64,000 nucleotides of DNA from sequence record OR999189.1; one strand, 5' to 3'. The notes beneath the pieces are model-generated. The model ran no database searches and was not told the DNA's origin. It worked only from the letters and a program-made list of their open reading frames with translations. Shown here piece after piece: positions 2,964 through 20,985 of the stretch. Source of the stretch: Enterobacteria phage P922. The translations under genes and the position numbers were made by a program. Within the stretch, counting starts at the first letter, position 1; the number at the start of each line of letters is the position of its first letter.

Positions 2964-3377
2964 ATGACCCGTATCAATTTAACACTTGTTTCTGAATTGG
3001 CCGACCAACATCTTATGGCTGAGTATCGTGAATTACCACGCGTATTTGGTGCAGTCCGTAAACATGTTCAAAACGGTAAATGTGTAAAGGATTTTAAAAT
3101 CTCTCCAACATTTATATTAGGCACAGGTCACGTAACATTCTTTTACGACAAACTCGAATTTTTACGTTTACGTCAAATCGAGCTAATCGCTGAATGCTTG
3201 AAACGTGGTTTCAAAATCAAGGACACGACTGTCCAGGATATTTCCGACATCCCTGCCGAATTTCGTAATAATTATGTCCCGGACGAAGCGTCCATTGCGA
3301 TAAGTCAAGCACGCTTAGATGAAAAAATTGCTCAACGTCCTACTTGGTACAAATACTATGGTAAATCAATTTACTAA
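2964..3377 (+). CDS. denV: endonuclease V, pyrimidine dimer DNA glycosylase (DenV)
   Basis: [34 protein letters not shown]... matches T4 DenV; GGAGG RBS before ATG 2964. Confidence 0.92.
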
Positions 3378-3389
3378 GGAAAAATTAAA

Positions 3390-3644
3390 ATGTATCAAGA
3401 ATTTATCGCTGAAGCAGATGCCAAAGGCCCCAAATTTAAAGTTAAAGCTTTCATTGGTGATGCCGAAGATTTTGGCTCATTAAAACGTAATGGGTATTCT
3501 TTCTCAGGCGGCAATGGTAAAGAAATAAACACCTATGCAAAACGTAGTGAAATTGCTTATGTTGTAGTAAGCCCTAAAGTAGATGTTGACGATATTGGAT
3601 ACGATTTTAACAACTTCGGAATTATTTCTGGCGGTAAAGCTTAA
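3390..3644 (+). CDS. internal protein-like small protein
   Basis: Starts MYQEFIAEA, a CTS-like motif lacking the KT dipeptide; 84 aa. Confidence 0.55.
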   Translation: MYQEFIAEADAKGPKFKVKAFIGDAEDFGSLKRNGYSFSGGNGKEINTYAKRSEIAYVVVSPKVDVDDIGYDFNNFGIISGGKA

Positions 3645-3705
3645 ACAGTTTACGCTTAAGTATTAATATGGTATAATTACTCTATCAAAACAAACAAGGA
3701 AACAC

Positions 3706-4281
3706 ATGAAAACGTATAAAGAATTTATCGCTGAAGCTTCTGTGGAAAAGGCCAAAGGCATTAATAAAGATGAGTGGACTTACCGAGGAAATGGTTTTGA
3801 CCCTAAAACAGCCCCTATTGAACGATACTTAGCTACAAAAGCTTCCGACTTTAAAGCTTTCGCTTGGGAAGGACTTCGCTGGTGTACTGATCTAAATATT
3901 GAAGTTGATGGGCTTAAATTTGGCCATATTCAAGATGTTGTTGCTAGTAACTTGGACGCAGCTTTTGTTAAAGCTGACGGTGACCTTCGTCGCTGGAATT
4001 TAAAATTATTCTCTAAACAGAAAGGCCCAGTGTTTGTGCCTAAAGCTGGTAAATGGGTTATTGATAATAAATTAGCTAAGGCTGTCAACTTCGCCGGTCT
4101 TGAATTTGCCAAGCACAAATCGGCATGGAAAGGTCTTGATGCAATGGCTTTCCGTAAAGAATTCGCCGAGGTTATGACTAAAGGCGGCTTTAAGGCAGAA
4201 CTAGATACCTCTAAAGGTACGTTTAAAGACGCTAATGTTCAGTATGCTTACGCCGTTGCTAATGCAGCCCGTGGTAATTAA
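3706..4281 (+). CDS. ipIII: internal protein III-like (IPIII)
   Basis: MKTYKEFIAEASVEKAKGINKDEWTYRGNGFDPKTAPIERYLATKASDFKAFAWEGLRW... resembles T4 IPIII; CTS present. Confidence 0.8.
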   Translation: MKTYKEFIAEASVEKAKGINKDEWTYRGNGFDPKTAPIERYLATKASDFKAFAWEGLRWCTDLNIEVDGLKFGHIQDVVASNLDAAFVKADGDLRRWNLKLFSKQKGPVFVPKAGKWVIDNKLAKAVNFAGLEFAKHKSAWKGLDAMAFRKEFAEVMTKGGFKAELDTSKGTFKDANVQYAYAVANAARGN

Positions 4282-4458: not shown

Positions 4459-5001
4459 ATGAGAACATTTTTAACTGGTCCTTATCTATCCCTGATGAAT
4501 GCTTTTACACACCATTCTGATGCTAGAGTAGAAGAAATTTGTAATAGTGGATTTTATGTACCTGATTCGTCGCATTTATTTAAAGAATATTGTACACTTC
4601 GTTTAGATGGTGGCAGACAATCTGGTAAATCAACTGCAGTAACTAATTTTGCCGCTAATTGGTTGTATGACGGTGGAACAGTTATTGTTCTTTCTAATAC
4701 TTCAGCTTACGCTAAAATTTCTGCGGGCCACATTAAAAAAGAATTTTCGCGTTATTCTAGCGATGATATTCGATTCCGCTTATTTACTGATTCTGTGCGC
4801 AGTTTTATTGGGAATAAAGGAAGCAAGTTCAGAGGTTTATCGCTTTCGCGGATTTTGTATATAATCGATGAGCCTGTTAAATCTCCTGATATGGATAAAA
4901 TTTACGATATTCATATTGAAACTGTGCACCACTGTTGCAATAGTAAATGCTGCATTGGCGGTATTACTCGTCCGCAGTTTTTCGTAATTGGGATGCAATG
5001 A
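4459..5001 (+). CDS. small P-loop NTPase (Walker A GGRQSGKST, Walker B LYIIDEP)
   Basis: ORF track 4411..5001; start at ATG 4459 chosen for weak GAGAG RBS; ATGs at 4411/4429 also possible. Confidence 0.55.
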   Translation: MRTFLTGPYLSLMNAFTHHSDARVEEICNSGFYVPDSSHLFKEYCTLRLDGGRQSGKSTAVTNFAANWLYDGGTVIVLSNTSAYAKISAGHIKKEFSRYSSDDIRFRLFTDSVRSFIGNKGSKFRGLSLSRILYIIDEPVKSPDMDKIYDIHIETVHHCCNSKCCIGGITRPQFFVIGMQ

Positions 5002-5327
5002 TGACAGATACGCAACTTTTCGAATATCTTTATTTTTCGCCAAAAACTATTAAAAATAAATTGGTGAATCATTTTGAAATTTTGGCAAATAACAACGTCT
5101 TGAGCGAATTTTATCCCAAGCAATACAAATTACAAAAAGGTGTATTCAAAGGATGCAGAGTTTTGTGCACTGCTCCTAATGCAAGATTAATGAATAAAAT
5201 TCCATATTTTACCATGGAATTTATTGATGGACCTTTTAAAGGACTAATCACCCAAAGTTTAATGGCATATGATTCTGAGCCATTTTTAATTAAAGAACAA
5301 TCTTGGATAAATTTATTTTCTAATTGA
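4998..5327 (+). CDS. hypothetical protein
   Basis: ORF track 4947..5327; ATG 4998 overlaps upstream stop (ATGATGA). Confidence 0.45.
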
Positions 5328-5335
5328 GAGGTTAT

Positions 5336-5698
5336 ATGAAAGCATACCAAATTCTTGAAGGCACACATAAAGGTACTATTTATTTTGAAGATGGTATTCA
5401 AGCACGAATTATTGTTTCTAAAACCTTTAAAGAGGATTCTTTTGTAGACCCAGAAATTTTCTATGGTTTGCATGCCCGTGAAATTGAAATTGAAACACAA
5501 CCTACAGTTAAAATCGAGGGTGGTCAACACCTGAACGTTAACGTTCTGCGTCGTGAAACTCTGGAAGATGCAGTTAAGCATCCGGAAAAATATCCGCAGC
5601 TGACCATCCGTGTATCCGGTTATGCAGTTCGCTTTAACTCTCTGACTCCGGAACAGCAGCGCGACGTTATCGCTCGTACCTTTACTGAGAGTTTGTAA
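5336..5698 (+). CDS. GrcA/YfiD-like autonomous glycyl-radical cofactor
   Basis: C-terminal ~60 aa [59 protein letters not shown] with RVSGY glycyl radical motif; GAGAGG RBS. Confidence 0.85.
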
Positions 5699-5919
5699 TG
5701 GCAAAGATAATTATTGAAGGTTCTAAAGATGTGCTAAATGCTTTCGCCGAGTGGTTTAGTAATTCAGGCGAACAGCAATTTAATGAAGCATGGAACATGG
5801 GTGATATTAGTGGAATTTATCCTACGACAGAAATTTCTGTTCAGGGATATGGCATTCATGAACCTATTCGTTTAGTTGAATATGATTTGGGTACTGGTGA
5901 GGAAGTAAAATATGATTGA
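5698..5919 (+). CDS. hypothetical small protein
   Basis: ORF track; ATG overlaps upstream stop. Confidence 0.45.
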   Translation: MAKIIIEGSKDVLNAFAEWFSNSGEQQFNEAWNMGDISGIYPTTEISVQGYGIHEPIRLVEYDLGTGEEVKYD

Positions 5920-6178
5920 AGATATTAAGGGTTATAAGCCACATACTGAAGAGAAAATCGGTAAAGTGAATGCTATCAAAGATGCTGAAGTTCGTTTAGG
6001 ACTTATCTTTGACGCTTTATACGATGAATTCTGGGAAGCACTAGATAATTGCGAAGACTACGAATTCGCAAAGAATTATGCTGAAAGCCTCGATCAGCTA
6101 ACTATTGCTAAAACGAAACTCAAAGAAGCCAGTATGTGGGCTTGTCGTGCTGTGTTCCAACCAGAGGAAAAATATTAA
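5912..6178 (+). CDS. hypothetical small protein (vs.4 position by gene order)
   Basis: ORF track; position between denV cluster and regB. Confidence 0.45.
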
Positions 6179-6456
6179 TGGCTCAATTAAGCGCAGGGTT
6201 TGGTTATGAGTATTATACTGCCCCTCGTCGTGTATCTGTTGCTCCTAAGAAAATTCAAAGTCTTGATGACTTCCAGGAAGTAGTCCGCAAAGCTTTCCAG
6301 GACTATGCACGTTATCTTAAAGAAGATTCACAGGACTGTCTCGAAGAAGATGAAATTGCTTACTATGAGCAGCGTCTTGAACAGCTTAAAAACCTACATG
6401 AGGTTCGTGCAGAAGTTACAAAGTCTATGAATAAATTGATTAGATTTAAAGAATAA
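6178..6456 (+). CDS. hypothetical small protein
   Basis: ORF track 6136..6456; ATG 6178 overlaps upstream stop (TAATG). Confidence 0.45.
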
Positions 6457-6458
6457 TT

Positions 6459-6488
6459 GTTTACTTTTCCTCTTGACTGTGGTATAAT
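6459..6488 (+). promoter_or_regulatory. T4-type early promoter upstream of regB
   Basis: GTTTAC 6459-6464, 18 nt spacer, TGGTATAAT with -10 at 6483-6488; AGAGGAG RBS follows. Confidence 0.6.
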
Positions 6489-6515
6489 TTTTCTATCAGT
6501 TAAGAGGAGAATAAC

Positions 6516-6977
6516 ATGACTATCAACACAGAAGTTTTTATCCGTCGAAATAAGCTCCGTCGTCACTTTGAGTCGGAGTTTCGTCAAATTAACAATGAGA
6601 TTCGTGAGGCATCAAAAGCAGCAGGGGTCTCATCGTTTCATCTAAAATATTCTCAGCATCTTCTTGATCGTGCAATTCAACGGGAGATTGATGAGACATA
6701 TGTTTTTGAATTATTCCACAAAATAAAAGACCATGTTTTAGAAGTTAATGAATTCCTGAGTATGCCTCCGCGTCCTGACATTGACGAGGATTTTATTGAT
6801 GGGGTTGAATATCGTCCTGGGCGTTTAGAAATCACAGATGGAAATCTTTGGCTTGGATTTACAGTTTGTAAACCTAATGCGAAGTTCAAAGACCCGTCGC
6901 TTCAGTGCAGGATGGCAATTATTAACAGTCGTCGTTTACCAGGAAAGGCTTCTAAAGCAGTAATTAAAACTCAATGA
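6516..6977 (+). CDS. regB: RegB site-specific endoribonuclease
   Basis: 153 aa, MTINTEVFIRRNKLRRHFESEF...; size and position match T4 RegB. Confidence 0.8.
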   Translation: MTINTEVFIRRNKLRRHFESEFRQINNEIREASKAAGVSSFHLKYSQHLLDRAIQREIDETYVFELFHKIKDHVLEVNEFLSMPPRPDIDEDFIDGVEYRPGRLEITDGNLWLGFTVCKPNAKFKDPSLQCRMAIINSRRLPGKASKAVIKTQ

Positions 6978-14552: not shown

Positions 14553-14588
14553 TACCCTATCAAAACAAATGTAAAATTGGAGAATAAA

Positions 14589-15557
14589 ATGAAAACTGTA
14601 ACTATCAATAAGGGTATCTACTTCGGTAAAGAAATCTCTGGAACTTTTGAGCTCTTAGGTGAATGGTTCCCAGATAATGCTCCGGTAGATGCACAAGGAG
14701 ATGGTAAAGTTTTTGTTGAAATTGACGGTAAGCGTCGCGGTGTTTGGGTTTACAAATCAGACATTTCATATGATGGTGTAAAAGTTGAAGAAGTTAAAGA
14801 ATCATATGAAGATATGAAAACCCGCATTAATAAAAGATTTAATGTTATGGGAATGATGACGAATGGTATTATTAACGGAAATATTCGTTCATTAATTATC
14901 TCTGGTGCGGCGGGTATTGGTAAAACGTATTCTTTAGATAAAGCTTTGAATAAAGCAAATGATAATGGATACATTGAATATAAAAGCATTAATGGTAAAA
15001 TCTCTGGTATCGGTCTTTATGAACAGCTTTGGAATAATCGTGAAGAGAATTCTGTCCTTTTGATTGATGATGTGGATGTTTTCTCTGATATGGACATTCT
15101 TAATCTTCTGAAAGCTGCTCTGGACACTGGAGAGACCCGTAAAGTCTGCTGGAGCACCGCATCTTCTTACTTAGAAGAAAAAGGCATTGAGCGTGAGTTT
15201 GAATTTAAAGGAACGATTGTTTTTATCACAAACGTTGACATTGACCGCGAATTAGACCGTGGTACTAAACTTGCTCCACATTTACAAGCATTAGTGTCCC
15301 GCTCGGTTTATTTGGATTTGGGTGTTCACACTAATGAAGAAATTATGGTCAGGGTTGAAGATGTTATTCTTTCAACTGACATGATGCAAAAGCGCGGTCT
15401 TTCTGATGAAGAAACTTATAAAGCATTATCATGGATGAAAGTTAATGTTAATCGTTTACGCAATGTTTCACTGCGTACTGCTCTTTATCTTGCTGACTTT
15501 ATTATGACCGACAAAAACGGTTGGGAAGAAATTGCTGAGGTTACTCTTCTGAAATAA
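14589..15557 (+). CDS. AAA+/P-loop ATPase
   Basis: Walker A ISGAAGIGKTYS, Walker B VLLIDDVD, sensor-like VFITN; GGAGAATAAA RBS. Confidence 0.65.
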   Translation: MKTVTINKGIYFGKEISGTFELLGEWFPDNAPVDAQGDGKVFVEIDGKRRGVWVYKSDISYDGVKVEEVKESYEDMKTRINKRFNVMGMMTNGIINGNIRSLIISGAAGIGKTYSLDKALNKANDNGYIEYKSINGKISGIGLYEQLWNNREENSVLLIDDVDVFSDMDILNLLKAALDTGETRKVCWSTASSYLEEKGIEREFEFKGTIVFITNVDIDRELDRGTKLAPHLQALVSRSVYLDLGVHTNEEIMVRVEDVILSTDMMQKRGLSDEETYKALSWMKVNVNRLRNVSLRTALYLADFIMTDKNGWEEIAEVTLLK

Positions 15558-16549: not shown

Positions 16550-16604
16550 CCGCTTTATACCAAGGATGGTATAATGGTTCTAAGCCCTTTTAATTGAGAT
16601 TATT

Positions 16605-17012
16605 ATGAAACGGTTGATAATTAAAAGATTGAATTTATTGATATGTTGTTTATGTATAGTAGTTGCATATGGTTATTACGCAATTAATGATTATATGCAT
16701 TATAAAGATTATGATGTTACTGTAGTTAATACTATTACAGGAACTCAAGGAAAAGGGTCTAGTTTATCGTTTATTGCCGTATATGAACTCAAAGACGGTT
16801 ATAGATTTAGTGAATATATTTCCCCAGAGATGTATTCTTCAATAGAAAAAGGTGATAATATTACTGTAAGTTTACGTCCTTTCGACGTAAAACAGACACT
16901 GTTTGATAATATTGTTTGGTTCTTTGGGATGGTATTAGTTCAATCCGTGTGTGGCGCTTATGTAGTTTGTTCAATCATATTCTGTGTATTTAGTAAAATT
17001 GAAATTGAGTGA
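16605..17012 (+). CDS. membrane protein (N- and C-terminal hydrophobic helices)
   Basis: ORF track; hydrophobic LNLLICCLCIVVAYGYYAI and IVWFFGMVLVQSVCGAYVVCSIIFCVF. Confidence 0.5.
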   Translation: MKRLIIKRLNLLICCLCIVVAYGYYAINDYMHYKDYDVTVVNTITGTQGKGSSLSFIAVYELKDGYRFSEYISPEMYSSIEKGDNITVSLRPFDVKQTLFDNIVWFFGMVLVQSVCGAYVVCSIIFCVFSKIEIE

Positions 17013-17019
17013 GGAAAAT

Positions 17020-17910
17020 ATGTCAGTAGTAATTAATAATGTCAATGCAGTAATTAAATCTTTAGTTAATAAAAAAATGATGAATGAATGGACTGTACTT
17101 CGTCGTGGAGAGCCAGATAAATTTTTTCATAGATTTAACCCAACTTTGGATTTGAATGTTATTGATAAAGATGTTCATGCCGAAATTTTAGATAAGTTTA
17201 AAGTTGATATTGGATTTGGATTAGAAAAACATTTGCAGCGAACAAGCGGATCTGGAATGAGTTTATCTAATCGCATTATGAAAGCCCTTAATAAAATTGG
17301 AGCATTGTCTCGTATTAACGCGAGTGAAATCCTTCGTAATTATAATAAAGGATATGACCTTTATGGTCGACTGATGCCAAAATTATCATTCGATCAAATG
17401 ATAGCGGATTTGTGGGAAAATCAAAGACGATTATTAGCATTAGGCGCTCGATTAGCTAAAGGTTTAGATAAACAAATGATTTTTAAGACCAATAATACAG
17501 AAGACCTTAAATGCTTTAAATTTAGTATTCGTGGAGATGATTATTACATCAGAGCTCACTCTACAGATTATGCTAATATGGGGCATCATCTCTGTTTAGC
17601 TTTTGAAGTTTTAAAAGAAGCTGGAACATTAGAATATACGTCTGGTGCTAAATGCCCTATTGGTTCAAGTTGTATTTTAATTTATCGCCCGGATGAATCC
17701 AGTTCAACTAAATTGCCTACAAAACCTGTACCGGTTCGTAGTAACGAAAAACATTCTGAACAAATTGATTATTTTAATAAGCAGATTGAAGAGCTGAATA
17801 TTTCTATTCAACAATATGATGATGAAATTTTCAGACTATCTGGATTGAGTAGTAAAGCTAAATCTGAGCGTGAAAAGTTAATTAAAATTGTTGATTTACT
17901 TAAATCTTAA
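17020..17910 (+). CDS. coiled-coil-tailed protein, tandem array member 1
   Basis: ORF track 16984..17910, ATG 17020 with GAGGAAAAT RBS; C-terminal ~40 aa heptad-like helix. Confidence 0.55.
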   Translation: MSVVINNVNAVIKSLVNKKMMNEWTVLRRGEPDKFFHRFNPTLDLNVIDKDVHAEILDKFKVDIGFGLEKHLQRTSGSGMSLSNRIMKALNKIGALSRINASEILRNYNKGYDLYGRLMPKLSFDQMIADLWENQRRLLALGARLAKGLDKQMIFKTNNTEDLKCFKFSIRGDDYYIRAHSTDYANMGHHLCLAFEVLKEAGTLEYTSGAKCPIGSSCILIYRPDESSSTKLPTKPVPVRSNEKHSEQIDYFNKQIEELNISIQQYDDEIFRLSGLSSKAKSEREKLIKIVDLLKS

Positions 17911-17918
17911 GGAACACC

Positions 17919-18947
17919 ATGAAAACTCGTTCTCAAATTGAAGATATGGTTCGTAATGCCAGTTATACTCGTGATGTTATGACATTTTTGTGTGAAAATA
18001 ATTTAGACCCTGATAAAGTTAATCGTGTTATTCATCACTTTAAGTATACGAATAGCAGTGAATGGGTGCGTAATTTTAGTAAAGCGGGATATATTACACA
18101 AATGACTGCTCGTGAGCAACTCACCGATTTCTGTAAAACTATTGATTATAAAAATCCTTTATTTGTTCAAGGCGTTGGTCAAAGTAAGGTCGATTTATCA
18201 TCTGGATTTTTCAATCCAAATCATTATCGTATTGAATGGAGATTTATTGCTCTGTTCCGTAGACAATTAAAGCAAATTTTATCAACTGCGAGTCGATTAA
18301 AAGGTTCTGATATTAACTTAAAGAACCTGAAATTTGATGGTTATACTCTTCAGATGGAAGTAAGACCATTAAAAGAAAATAATAGAACTGCACGAATTAG
18401 CTTTAAACCTAATACAAAAAATTCTCTTTCAATTTGCGAATGCCTTAAATCGCAGTTGACAGAAGCATTTAAGTATATGGATGTTGTTGCCGCTGTTCAG
18501 TCTAAGATTTTACCTCATTTTGAGCGAAATTGGGAACATACAACAACGTATGAACTTGATATGATCGTTTCATTTAAATACGATTTTTTGAGAAAGGACG
18601 AAGTCACGCAAGAGAAAAAGCAAGAAGTGCAAGATAACTTAAATTTAAATTTATCTAATTACTCATCAAACGATCCTAAATTTTGGATGTATAGTTCAGG
18701 TAATAAGGATGCATGGAAATTCAATAAAGTGAATTTTCTTCCTGTTGAAAATCCGAGTCTTAAACCTGTTGAAAAATGGCATGCAGATGCGATTGAGAAG
18801 TCTATCAAGGCAGTAGATGATGAACTCGTTAAAGCAACTAATGAAGTGCTAGAAGCTGAAAAGATGCTAGAAAAAGCTCAAGAAAAAGTCAAAAATCTTA
18901 CGAAGCAACGTTCTAAACTGAACAATGCACTAAATGCACTAAACTAG
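17919..18947 (+). CDS. coiled-coil-tailed protein, tandem array member 2
   Basis: Starts MKTRSQIEDMVRN; C-terminal VDDELVKATNEVLEAEKMLEKAQEKVKNLTKQRSKLNNALNALN. Confidence 0.55.
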   Translation: MKTRSQIEDMVRNASYTRDVMTFLCENNLDPDKVNRVIHHFKYTNSSEWVRNFSKAGYITQMTAREQLTDFCKTIDYKNPLFVQGVGQSKVDLSSGFFNPNHYRIEWRFIALFRRQLKQILSTASRLKGSDINLKNLKFDGYTLQMEVRPLKENNRTARISFKPNTKNSLSICECLKSQLTEAFKYMDVVAAVQSKILPHFERNWEHTTTYELDMIVSFKYDFLRKDEVTQEKKQEVQDNLNLNLSNYSSNDPKFWMYSSGNKDAWKFNKVNFLPVENPSLKPVEKWHADAIEKSIKAVDDELVKATNEVLEAEKMLEKAQEKVKNLTKQRSKLNNALNALN

Positions 18948-18976
18948 TTTACTTTGCCACAAGGATGTGGTATAAT
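18947..18976 (+). promoter_or_regulatory. early promoter (near-identical copy at 63732)
   Basis: GTTTAC 18947-18952, 18 nt, TGTGGTATAAT with -10 at 18971-18976. Confidence 0.6.
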
Positions 18977-19004
18977 GTTCTTACTTTCTACTGAGGAGAT
19001 TAAT

Positions 19005-20006
19005 ATGACTCGTAACGAATATATCAAATCATTCAATAGCGTTATTGATGATAAAGTTAAACCTATGTCTAGTCAGAATAGTGTTCTTTCTATTATCAAT
19101 CAATGGCTCAATAATATTGATGTAAGCATTGTTTCTTCCAACAGATTTATTCACGAAGTTCGTGAAATTTCTAGTCGTACAGATAAAGATGACATTAAGA
19201 AAACCTTTAAAGGGTCTCGTCTTCTTTCATACTTAGTCAACAGAGATATTCTTGGTAAATTTGGGAAAGAAATTAAACGAACTAAAGATGTAGTAGGATA
19301 TAATTGGTTCGGTGATGTTAATTCTTATCATCTTAATAATAAAGAAGACCCTGAGAATATTTTTACTCGTCGTTGGATTAGTAATTTCAGACTTTTCAAA
19401 GGACAAATTCTAAAATCAGCTTCTAAATTATGTTATGGCGATTATCGTCAAATTCATCCTTTGGCTTCTGATATGATTATCGTAAAAGAATATGAACTTG
19501 ATAAAAATAAAGTAGCTATTTTTGTGAATTATGGATTTTTTACACCAGACGCTAACCAAAAGAATATTAATAAATTTTTCTCAATTGCTAGCACTATAAC
19601 TTATCAATTAGAGGCGGCTTTGGGCTGTATGGAAACCGTAAAAAGTATTCATACTTATCCTTTTAAAAATATGTGCGGTTGGGAAGGATATAAAATTATA
19701 ATTAGCCTCCGTGAAGTGAAACGTACGTACTCACCGACTGATAAAGAAATTTACCAACAAAAATGTGATGAAATTGTGAATACTCCTAAAGAAGAAACTA
19801 CCCTTGAAGAACTAATGGAATGTCTTGACGATTCGCCTGAACCGATAGAAATTCGTCCAGAAGTTATTGCACTAGAAAAAGCTTATAAAGAAGTTCTAGA
19901 AATTTCTAATAAAGCGCAGAAAGATTATGAGAAGGCTAAAAGGATTTGGGAAGAATCTGTTAATCGCCTTGATCGTTTGGAACAAGCTTTACAGTTAATT
20001 AAGTAA
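19005..20006 (+). CDS. coiled-coil-tailed protein, tandem array member 3
   Basis: ORF track 18954..20006, ATG 19005 with GAGGAG RBS; C-terminal coiled coil. Confidence 0.55.
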   Translation: MTRNEYIKSFNSVIDDKVKPMSSQNSVLSIINQWLNNIDVSIVSSNRFIHEVREISSRTDKDDIKKTFKGSRLLSYLVNRDILGKFGKEIKRTKDVVGYNWFGDVNSYHLNNKEDPENIFTRRWISNFRLFKGQILKSASKLCYGDYRQIHPLASDMIIVKEYELDKNKVAIFVNYGFFTPDANQKNINKFFSIASTITYQLEAALGCMETVKSIHTYPFKNMCGWEGYKIIISLREVKRTYSPTDKEIYQQKCDEIVNTPKEETTLEELMECLDDSPEPIEIRPEVIALEKAYKEVLEISNKAQKDYEKAKRIWEESVNRLDRLEQALQLIK

Positions 20007-20058
20007 TTTAAAGCCAAGGATGGCTCGGAGTATAAATCATTAACCAAGTGAGAAGAAC

Positions 20059-20985
20059 ATGAAAACTCGTAAACATTATATTGATTATTTTGACAGTCTT
20101 ATTACTAAACATCGTAATTATCAGATAGGACATAGAGCAGTAATCAATAATATTCTTCGTGATTTTTTAGACTATATTGGATGGGAAAACCATATTTGTA
20201 AAGATACACAAAATGCGTATTCACATTCTCTTGGTTCTTTGCTAGAGTGGTTCAAACGTTCCCGATTACTATCTTCTGTGATAGCTGTTAATAATGTTAA
20301 AAAATTTATGTATCCAAGCTACATTGAGACTAATGTATCAAATGCTAATGTTGTTACATTTAATATTATTAATGACGTGAAAAGAACTTATTTAGAAGAA
20401 TGGTTTTCTAAAAATAGTAAAGAAAAATTTGCTAGTGAGTTTTCACATGAATTTAATAATAATGTGAATATGCTTTTTAAGCATTCTCGTAGACTGTTTT
20501 GTCATGGCGATGACCGTACTATTAATGTAAATGTAAAAGATTGGGTTACGGCTAAATTTATTCCATCATCACAGAATGGACCATTTGAATTGTCAATTAT
20601 TGTTTGTGCTCCGCATGAAATATATAAAAATCTTCCATATATGAAACCGCGTGAAGCTAATAAACATAATAAAACGATTCGTTCTTTGACTTATAATCTT
20701 CGTACGTTATTGTCTAAAATGGACGTAGTTGAATCCTTTGATGATAATACGAATTATGGTCTTTCACTGTTTGAAACTAAAGTTGTTATTAAGTTAAAGG
20801 ACCCTAGTAAATTTAAACCTACACCAAAGCCCAATCATGGGAATGATACTATGAAAGAAGAACGCGAATATCTCAGTGCCCGTTTGATTGAAGTTGAAAA
20901 ACAGATTGAAGAGCATACTAAAGTTATTAAGGCTTTAACCGCCAAAGCAAATGGTTTACGTGATGCTATTGAGGTACTGAAATGA
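20059..20985 (+). CDS. coiled-coil-tailed protein, tandem array member 4
   Basis: Starts MKTRKHYIDYFDS, like member 2; C-terminal coiled coil. Confidence 0.55.
   Translation: MKTRKHYIDYFDSLITKHRNYQIGHRAVINNILRDFLDYIGWENHICKDTQNAYSHSLGSLLEWFKRSRLLSSVIAVNNVKKFMYPSYIETNVSNANVVTFNIINDVKRTYLEEWFSKNSKEKFASEFSHEFNNNVNMLFKHSRRLFCHGDDRTINVNVKDWVTAKFIPSSQNGPFELSIIVCAPHEIYKNLPYMKPREANKHNKTIRSLTYNLRTLLSKMDVVESFDDNTNYGLSLFETKVVIKLKDPSKFKPTPKPNHGNDTMKEEREYLSARLIEVEKQIEEHTKVIKALTAKANGLRDAIEVLK

Follow-up and report, generated by a model that had tools for sequence, protein, structure and literature searches.

The window analysed here is a stretch of 64,000 nucleotides from Enterobacteria phage P922 (sequence record OR999189.1). 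It contains a tandem block of four genes, the orthologs of nrdC.6, nrdC.5, nrdC.4 and nrdC.3 of phage T4 (Table 1). The proteins that they encode form one diverged family with a common architecture. One of them, NrdC.5, is known from T4 to act against the host defence protein Dsr1, and the other three are candidates for an anti-defence role of the same kind.

Identity of the four genes

The window belongs to a Tequatrovirus. By megablast, the block is 100% identical to that of Escherichia phage EcNP1, and its DNA is approximately 95% identical to T4T/T4 and T6. It matches 502 phage records, and in 461 of these at least 80% of the block is covered. The names of the four open reading frames (ORFs) are those of the T4T annotation, which places nrdC.11 to nrdC.7 upstream of the array, and nrdC.2, nrdC.1, nrdC (thioredoxin), 49.3–49.1, pin and gene 49 downstream. 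An earlier note, made from the sequence alone, had located the four consecutive plus-strand ORFs correctly, and their occurrence in hundreds of phage records marks them as real genes. It had been unable to place them in any T4 family; as T4 genes, they do not make up an unknown block.

The ratio of nonsynonymous to synonymous substitution rates (dN/dS) against T4T is 0.06–0.33 across the four genes, and all four are therefore constrained coding genes. The ORF found mechanically opens at a GTG at 16984 for nrdC.6 and at a TTG at 18954 for nrdC.4. The protein lengths in Table 1 are counted from the ATG codons at 17020 and 19005. The ATG starts match the T4T annotation, and a GAGG-type ribosome-binding site precedes each of the four genes.

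The nrdC.5 ORF is orthologous to NrdC.5 of T4/T4T, with 95.0% identity over 342 residues and the same place between nrdC.6 and nrdC.4. It matches the Pfam family DUF7235 with an E-value of 1.2e-129 and 432.6 bits (cut-off 30), residues 1–342 aligning to positions 1–307 of a model of 307. The nrdC.6 ORF gives a significant full-length match to phrog_2257 (E 9.4e-152 over 1–296). PF26899 is carried by nrdC.6 homologs, and PF26897 by all nrdC.4 homologs in the precomputed domain table. DUF7235 was the sole informative domain found when the four proteins were scanned with Pfam, NCBIfam and PADLOC; the PADLOC and NCBIfam models gave no significant match, their sub-threshold matches being driven by the coiled coil. 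An Rfam scan of 14–23 kb on both strands found no RNA family, and the minus-strand ORFs of the region are short and unremarkable.

Orthologs of nrdC.3–nrdC.6 are often labelled 'thioredoxin' or 'Thioredoxin, phage-associated' in GenBank, and one gene in the matching stretch of EcNP1 is labelled 'Mur ligase domain-containing protein'. Neither a thioredoxin nor a Mur ligase domain was detected in the four proteins. The thioredoxin labels have apparently been propagated from the nrdC.x locus tags, and a practical side effect of the analysis is that it exposes this widespread mis-annotation.

Table 1. Genes, C-terminal tails and predicted promoter elements of the nrdC.3–nrdC.6 block, in window coordinates.
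Feature	Position	Strand	Remarks
nrdC.6 ortholog, 296 aa	17020..17910	+	97% identical to T4T NrdC.6; PF26899 / phrog_2257
nrdC.6 tail, residues 243-295	17746..17907	+	Two heptad-patterned helices with a break at SGLSS; ends ...KLIKIVDLLKS
nrdC.5 ortholog, 342 aa	17919..18947	+	95% identical to T4T NrdC.5; DUF7235 / PF23882, phrog_2351
nrdC.5 tail, ~residues 287-342	18777..18944	+	Strongest heptad pattern of the four; ends ...QRSKLNNALNALN
nrdC.4 ortholog, 333 aa	19005..20006	+	90% identical to T4/T4T NrdC.4; PF26897 / phrog_1435, E 3.3e-165
nrdC.4 tail, residues 285-332	19857..20003	+	Single 48-residue helix (AlphaFold2); ends ...RLEQALQLIK
nrdC.3 ortholog, 308 aa	20059..20985	+	96% identical to T4/T4T NrdC.3; phrog_1435, as nrdC.4, E 1e-100
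nrdC.3 tail, ~residues 263-308	20845..20982	+	Heptad pattern
Promoter-like cassette GCTTTATACCAAGGATGGTATAAT	16552..16575	+	TGg-extended -10, no good -35; upstream of nrdC.7
Early (sigma-70 type) promoter consensus	18948..18976	+	Predicted; GTTTACT-17-TATAAT, TG-extended -10; 10/12 matches
Degenerate cassette copy ATTTAA..CCAAGGATGG..GAGTATAAAT	20006..20037	+	Upstream of nrdC.3

Relatedness and architecture of the four proteins

The four proteins are only 13–24% identical to each other. BLASTP detects a single significant pair, nrdC.4 and nrdC.3 (24.5% over 269 residues, E 1.7e-6), both of which fall in phrog_1435, and newer Pfam releases divide the proteins among three separate families, PF23882, PF26897 and PF26899. 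These results would fit a reading in which the proteins are unrelated, and share no more than the generic look of a helix-rich body followed by any coiled coil. Comparison of nrdC.6 with any single family using hhalign points the same way, being not significant (P 0.003–0.2).

However, more sensitive comparisons contradict that reading. When the family alignments are compared using hhalign, nrdC.4 matches nrdC.3 at 98%, and nrdC.5 matches nrdC.3 or a merged nrdC.3 and nrdC.4 profile at 71–88% (P 3e-6 to 4e-5). The best single-family alignment of nrdC.6 is always in register on the same motifs, and against a merged profile of nrdC.3, nrdC.4 and nrdC.5 it reaches a global score of 42.5 (P 6e-8, 92.6%). 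The reversed control scored 12.6, and 60 block-shuffles scored 9.9 ± 5.5 with a maximum of 27, giving a z of 5.9. There are also bridging proteins, which are matched in the globular region by the hidden Markov models (HMMs) of both nrdC.6 and nrdC.5, for example P0249 (7.6e-10 and 5.5e-6, respectively), P0241 (7.8e-16 and 1.8e-5), and gp092 of Pectobacterium phage PM2, where the gene is single-copy (9.7e-9 and 9.4e-7).

Predicted structures were compared for nrdC.6 and nrdC.4, as AlphaFold2 monomer models with mean predicted local distance difference test (pLDDT) scores of 77.6 and 84.6, respectively. The two models agree in the order of their elements: helices bundled at the N-terminus, then three short helices, a ββαββ arrangement, a disordered linker and, at the C-terminus, a long helix, which in nrdC.6 takes the form of a helical hairpin. 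Mapped on to the sequence alignment, their three-state secondary structures agree at 69–70% of positions, compared to a fraction of 0.43 ± 0.04 for circular shifts, or around 6 standard deviations above the null. A Foldseek search of BFVD found six targets common to the two models, with E-values from 1e-8 to 2e-3, from phages of Pectobacterium, Enterobacter, Acinetobacter, Klebsiella, Erwinia and Serratia. The TM-scores to these shared targets are modest (0.37–0.50), and neither model matched the family of the other directly.

On the basis of the controlled profile comparisons, the bridging sequences, the collinear motifs described below and the predicted structures, we conclude that all four globular regions are homologous and form one diverged family, and that the possibility of four unrelated proteins is effectively excluded. 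The genes are thus diverged tandem paralogs, as the earlier note had proposed. It had also given each protein a different N-terminal domain, which is incorrect: the bodies of around 250 residues are diverged homologs, probably of a single fold.

An alignment of 26 members shows collinear motifs across all the subfamilies. Those of the helical core are K-x-G/R-x-L-S/T-x3-A-x3-L-x2-F/Y and L-x2-G/A-x-R-L-x2-G, and it is striking how well the extreme C-terminus is conserved, as QR-x-K-L-x2-A-I/L-x2-L-K. Within each subfamily, conservation is highest in the motif core and the tail and lowest in the β-sheet subdomain. The subdomain is joined to the tail by a disordered linker that contains proline.

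Each protein ends in a heptad-patterned helix of 45–55 residues, in agreement with the amphipathic C-terminal helix that had been noted from the sequence. Over the last 49 residues, which are nearly free of proline and glycine, hydrophobic residues occupy 71–93% of the heptad a and d positions and 17–23% of the others. With predicted helices of 30–48 residues, this is the pattern of a coiled coil. In nrdC.6, AlphaFold2 divides the tail into helices at 243–272 and 278–295, of 30 and 18 residues. It is worth adding that in the T4 reference record AF158101 (locus 4567–5394) nrdC.6 is annotated as 275 residues, its C-terminus being frameshifted and without the coiled-coil tail, whereas T4T and the window have 296. 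The short form reflects either an error in sequencing or a mutation of the laboratory strain.

The MKTR/MTRN starts of nrdC.5, nrdC.4 and nrdC.3, also noted earlier, are a real feature, which distant relatives repeat (MTRIEY, MTRNEV, MNTRKDY, MITREEF). They bear a superficial resemblance to the MKT... N-termini of the T4 internal proteins IPI, IPII and IPIII, a polymorphic and dispensable T-even family of injected anti-restriction proteins, which carry the capsid-targeting sequence MKTYQEFIAE and an L/I-x-E cleavage site. A capsid-targeting function for the MKTR start was considered and rejected: nrdC.3–nrdC.5 match the targeting sequence at no more than 4 of 10 positions (nrdC.3 being the best) and have no L/I-x-E site. 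AlphaFold2 models the N-terminus of nrdC.4 with confidence as an integral helix. The window has internal-protein genes of its own at 2624–2905 and 3706–4281, of IPII/IPIII type, which match the targeting sequence at 7–9 of 10 positions; one has the N-terminus MKTYKEFIAE.

Distribution, copy number and promoter cassettes

When 1.84 billion representative proteins were searched exhaustively with an HMM profile of the superfamily, 32 clusters were found in total, several of which supply bridging proteins of the kind described above. All the members that could be placed in a genome are from Straboviridae (T4-like phages). Profile searches of all PDB sequences found no relative, the only matches being composition-driven ones to designed helical repeats. 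Among 50,697 phage records, nrdC.6 occurs in 741, nrdC.5 in 582, nrdC.4 in 559 and nrdC.3 in 653, and wherever the taxonomy of the carriers was checked, they are T4-like and their hosts enterobacteria. Of the four types, nrdC.6 is both the most widespread and the best conserved.

The number of copies is not identical in all the genera, and mapping across T-even genomes shows both a variation from one to four and natural deletions. There are four copies in Tequatrovirus. Three are present in Mosigvirus SF (the nrdC.6, nrdC.5 and nrdC.3 types), as in Gaprivervirus VR25 and Dhakavirus IME08 (the nrdC.6, nrdC.5 and nrdC.4 types), while Mosugukvirus PM2 and Karamvirus CC31 have one. In the genera compared, the last copy of the array is always directly upstream of nrdC.2. 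In phage ACG-C40 (locus 5802–6213) a deletion runs from inside nrdC.5 to the end of nrdC.3, joining 72 nrdC.5 codons to the nrdC.3 end, and the metagenomic protein P0056 is an out-of-register fusion of nrdC.5 and nrdC.3. A further observation comes from Acinetobacter phage Acj61, where in BFVD the nrdC.4 model matches E5E4A1 and the nrdC.6 model matches E5E4A2; the consecutive accessions suggest that a two-copy tandem array is also present in this distant T4-like phage.

The nrdC.3 gene occurs in the phage records as three allele classes, with at least 90%, approximately 61% and approximately 55% identity to the window copy. The mosaic structure of the commonest class, for example in phage vB_EcoM_P8, was analysed by comparing 20059–20985 of the window with P8 locus 3215–4144 and SF locus 5998–6942. 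Residues 1–70 of the P8 protein are identical to the window copy, while the central 180 residues or so are 85–95% identical to the Mosigvirus SF allele and 30–70% identical to the window copy. The Mosigvirus-like centre behind a window-like start thus indicates exchange by recombination between genera.

The early promoter that the earlier note had placed at 18947 is borne out as a consensus match, and is therefore a predicted promoter. It carries a small CCACA-AGGA-TGTGG hairpin in its spacer, and is kept upstream of nrdC.4 in T4T, P8, VR25 and IME08, counted as four genera. It is one of the three window copies (16552–16575, 18948–18976 and 20006–20037) of a recurrent promoter cassette, (G)TTTAC..CCAAGGA(T/C)GG..(G)AGTATAAT, which has a small CCA-AGGA-TGG hairpin in the spacer and precedes the paralogs in several genera. 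Where phages have no nrdC.7 at this position, a cassette of the GCTTTATACCAAGGATGGTATAAT type is found immediately upstream of their nrdC.6-type gene. Mosigvirus SF has, before its nrdC.3-type gene, an intact version (GTTTACAACCAAGGACGGTTGGAGTATAAT) of the copy that is degenerate before nrdC.3 in the window. Within the 64 kb window, exact CCAAGGATGG is found only at 16560 and 20014, both inside the nrdC.x cluster. From these sequence repeats, the duplicated unit appears to be a promoter plus a gene.

Two neighbouring genes may be mentioned here. In Tequatrovirus, nrdC.7 (16605–17012), a predicted membrane protein, has the promoter cassette on one side and nrdC.6 on the other. SF, VR25 and IME08 lack it at that spot, and in PM2 and CC31 it is downstream of nrdC.2. 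The nrdC.10 ortholog (14577–15557, 326 residues) contains a GAAGIGKT P-loop, and models of AAA and STAND-type NTPases match it weakly, below threshold. No other gene of the stretch is as conserved: its identity to T4T is 99.4% and its dN/dS 0.05.

Possible functions in counter-defence

The published functional evidence concerns nrdC.5. A T4 clone with compensatory deletions became unable to infect ECOR17, and deletion of dsr1 in ECOR17 restored infection; expression of T4 nrdC.5 restored plating of the T4 deletion clone on MG1655 carrying the ECOR17 Dsr1 (Srikant, Guegler and Laub, eLife 2022, PMC9391042). Dsr1 is a SIR2 NADase, and is countered by nrdC.5 (PMC9391042). Beyond this paper, the literature searched contained nothing on an anti-Dsr1 mechanism or on DUF7235. 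So far, one trigger of E. coli Dsr1 has been identified: the major capsid protein of ZL19, a phage of the Drexlerviridae, reportedly acts on its TPR sensor (2026 preprint, PMC12803255). A capsid protein is a late product, and it therefore makes sense that an inhibitor should be made early. In the HIDEN-SEQ supplement, nrdC.3–nrdC.6 are all classed as non-essential in T4.

On the basis of these observations, we hypothesise that the four genes probably encode dispensable, host-range-determining counter-defence proteins, which are made before the late proteins. They would be read early from the predicted sigma-70-type promoters. NrdC.5 would then neutralise Dsr1, and NrdC.6, NrdC.4 and NrdC.3 would neutralise other host immune proteins. 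In each case the variable globular part may bind the defence protein stoichiometrically, and the coiled-coil tail may oligomerise the inhibitor. The earlier note had expected a host-takeover or counter-defence family: for nrdC.5 this agrees with the published work on its T4 ortholog, and for nrdC.6, nrdC.4 and nrdC.3 it would follow from their relationship to nrdC.5, which they resemble in architecture as distant paralogs from other Pfam and PHROG families. The copy number of one to four, the mosaic nrdC.3 alleles, the natural deletions and fusions, the low conservation of the β-sheet subdomain and the dispensability in T4 all fit a family engaged in an arms race.

Direct binding is a working model borrowed by analogy from DSAD1 of phage SPbeta, which, like nrdC.5, switches off a defence-associated sirtuin. 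DSAD1 reportedly inhibits the SIR2 NADase DSR2 by direct binding, as seen in published structures. Comparison of the array proteins with DSAD1 found no similarity of sequence or fold.

The array lies in the early, dispensable and variable stretch from nrdC.11 to gene 49, which also contains Pin, a Lon inhibitor, together with gp49.2 and NrdC.1. As with these three, phages have gained, lost and exchanged the array. The three proteins are small (approximately 50–160 residues), single-copy and unrelated in sequence, whereas the nrdC.3–nrdC.6 proteins have approximately 300–340 residues, occur in multiple copies and have a coiled-coil tail. gp49.2 inhibits OLD (PMC13096335), and NrdC.1 inhibits Septu (bioRxiv 2025.11.20.689424).

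Several points weigh against the hypothesis. The functional data are those for nrdC.5, and its effect on Dsr1 could be indirect. All four dN/dS values are below 1, with no gene-wide signal of positive selection. In the one HIDEN-SEQ host comparison examined, no significant effect was seen when nrdC.3–nrdC.6 were disrupted (q = 1). That the tail oligomerises the proteins is a prediction from its heptad pattern. The link between nrdC.6 and the other copies is not significant with single-family profiles and comes from the merged profile, the bridging sequences and structures that are predicted rather than solved, and the Foldseek TM-scores to the shared targets are modest.

Some of these observations could be accommodated if all four proteins had one shared function in host takeover or housekeeping, such as the binding, by core and tail, of a host or phage partner that they have in common. 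The action on Dsr1 would then be a side effect or indirect, and the copies would differ by drift or dosage. It is consistent with a common partner that the same core motifs and the C-terminal QRxKLxxAIxxLK are the most conserved parts in every subfamily. Purifying selection acts on all four genes, and three of the four have no known target. However, all four are dispensable on laboratory hosts, some phages manage with a single copy, and natural isolates have lost nrdC.5–nrdC.3. Moreover, the copies have diverged far more than a dosage role needs, and nrdC.5 alone is enough to overcome Dsr1. A shared function of this kind is in our view unlikely.

It might also be argued that nrdC.5 is the only counter-defence gene, and that the remaining copies are duplicates that are neutral or in decay and persist through their linkage within an accessory region. 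The degenerate promoter cassette before nrdC.3 in P922 and the frameshifted nrdC.6 tail in the reference T4 record look like signs of decay, and the HIDEN-SEQ host comparison gives no phenotypes for nrdC.6, nrdC.4 and nrdC.3. Decay is difficult to reconcile with ORFs that are intact in hundreds of genomes (559–741 phage records each), with the low dN/dS values, with the retention of orthologs in four genera, and with nrdC.6 being the most widespread and conserved type. We regard this explanation as distinctly improbable. Our preferred reading thus remains that of a counter-defence family, in which nrdC.6, nrdC.4 and nrdC.3 may each have a role like that of nrdC.5.

The genes themselves and the function of nrdC.5 are already known. 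Four points did not turn up in the literature searched: that the three Pfam/PHROG families form one superfamily, that PM2 and CC31 have a single copy, that promoter plus gene appears to be the unit of duplication, and that nrdC.3 has mosaic alleles.

T4 is the reference phage, but for most of its early accessory genes no function has been assigned. Paralogy with an anti-Dsr1 gene makes nrdC.6, nrdC.4 and nrdC.3 specific candidates for anti-defence genes that are cheap to test, in approximately 560–740 sequenced phage records. Three targets for mutation are also defined: the β-sheet subdomain, which is variable, the tail, which is conserved, and the allele classes of nrdC.3. More tentatively, it is possible that nrdC.3–nrdC.6 constitute a modular inhibitor platform, in which the helical core and the coiled-coil tail stay constant and present a β-sheet subdomain that evolves fast, and each paralog or nrdC.3 allele disarms a different immune sensor, possibly from the Dsr1/Avs7-type group with TPR sensors. 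If so, T-even phages would widen their host range by duplicating promoter-plus-gene cassettes and swapping them between genera.

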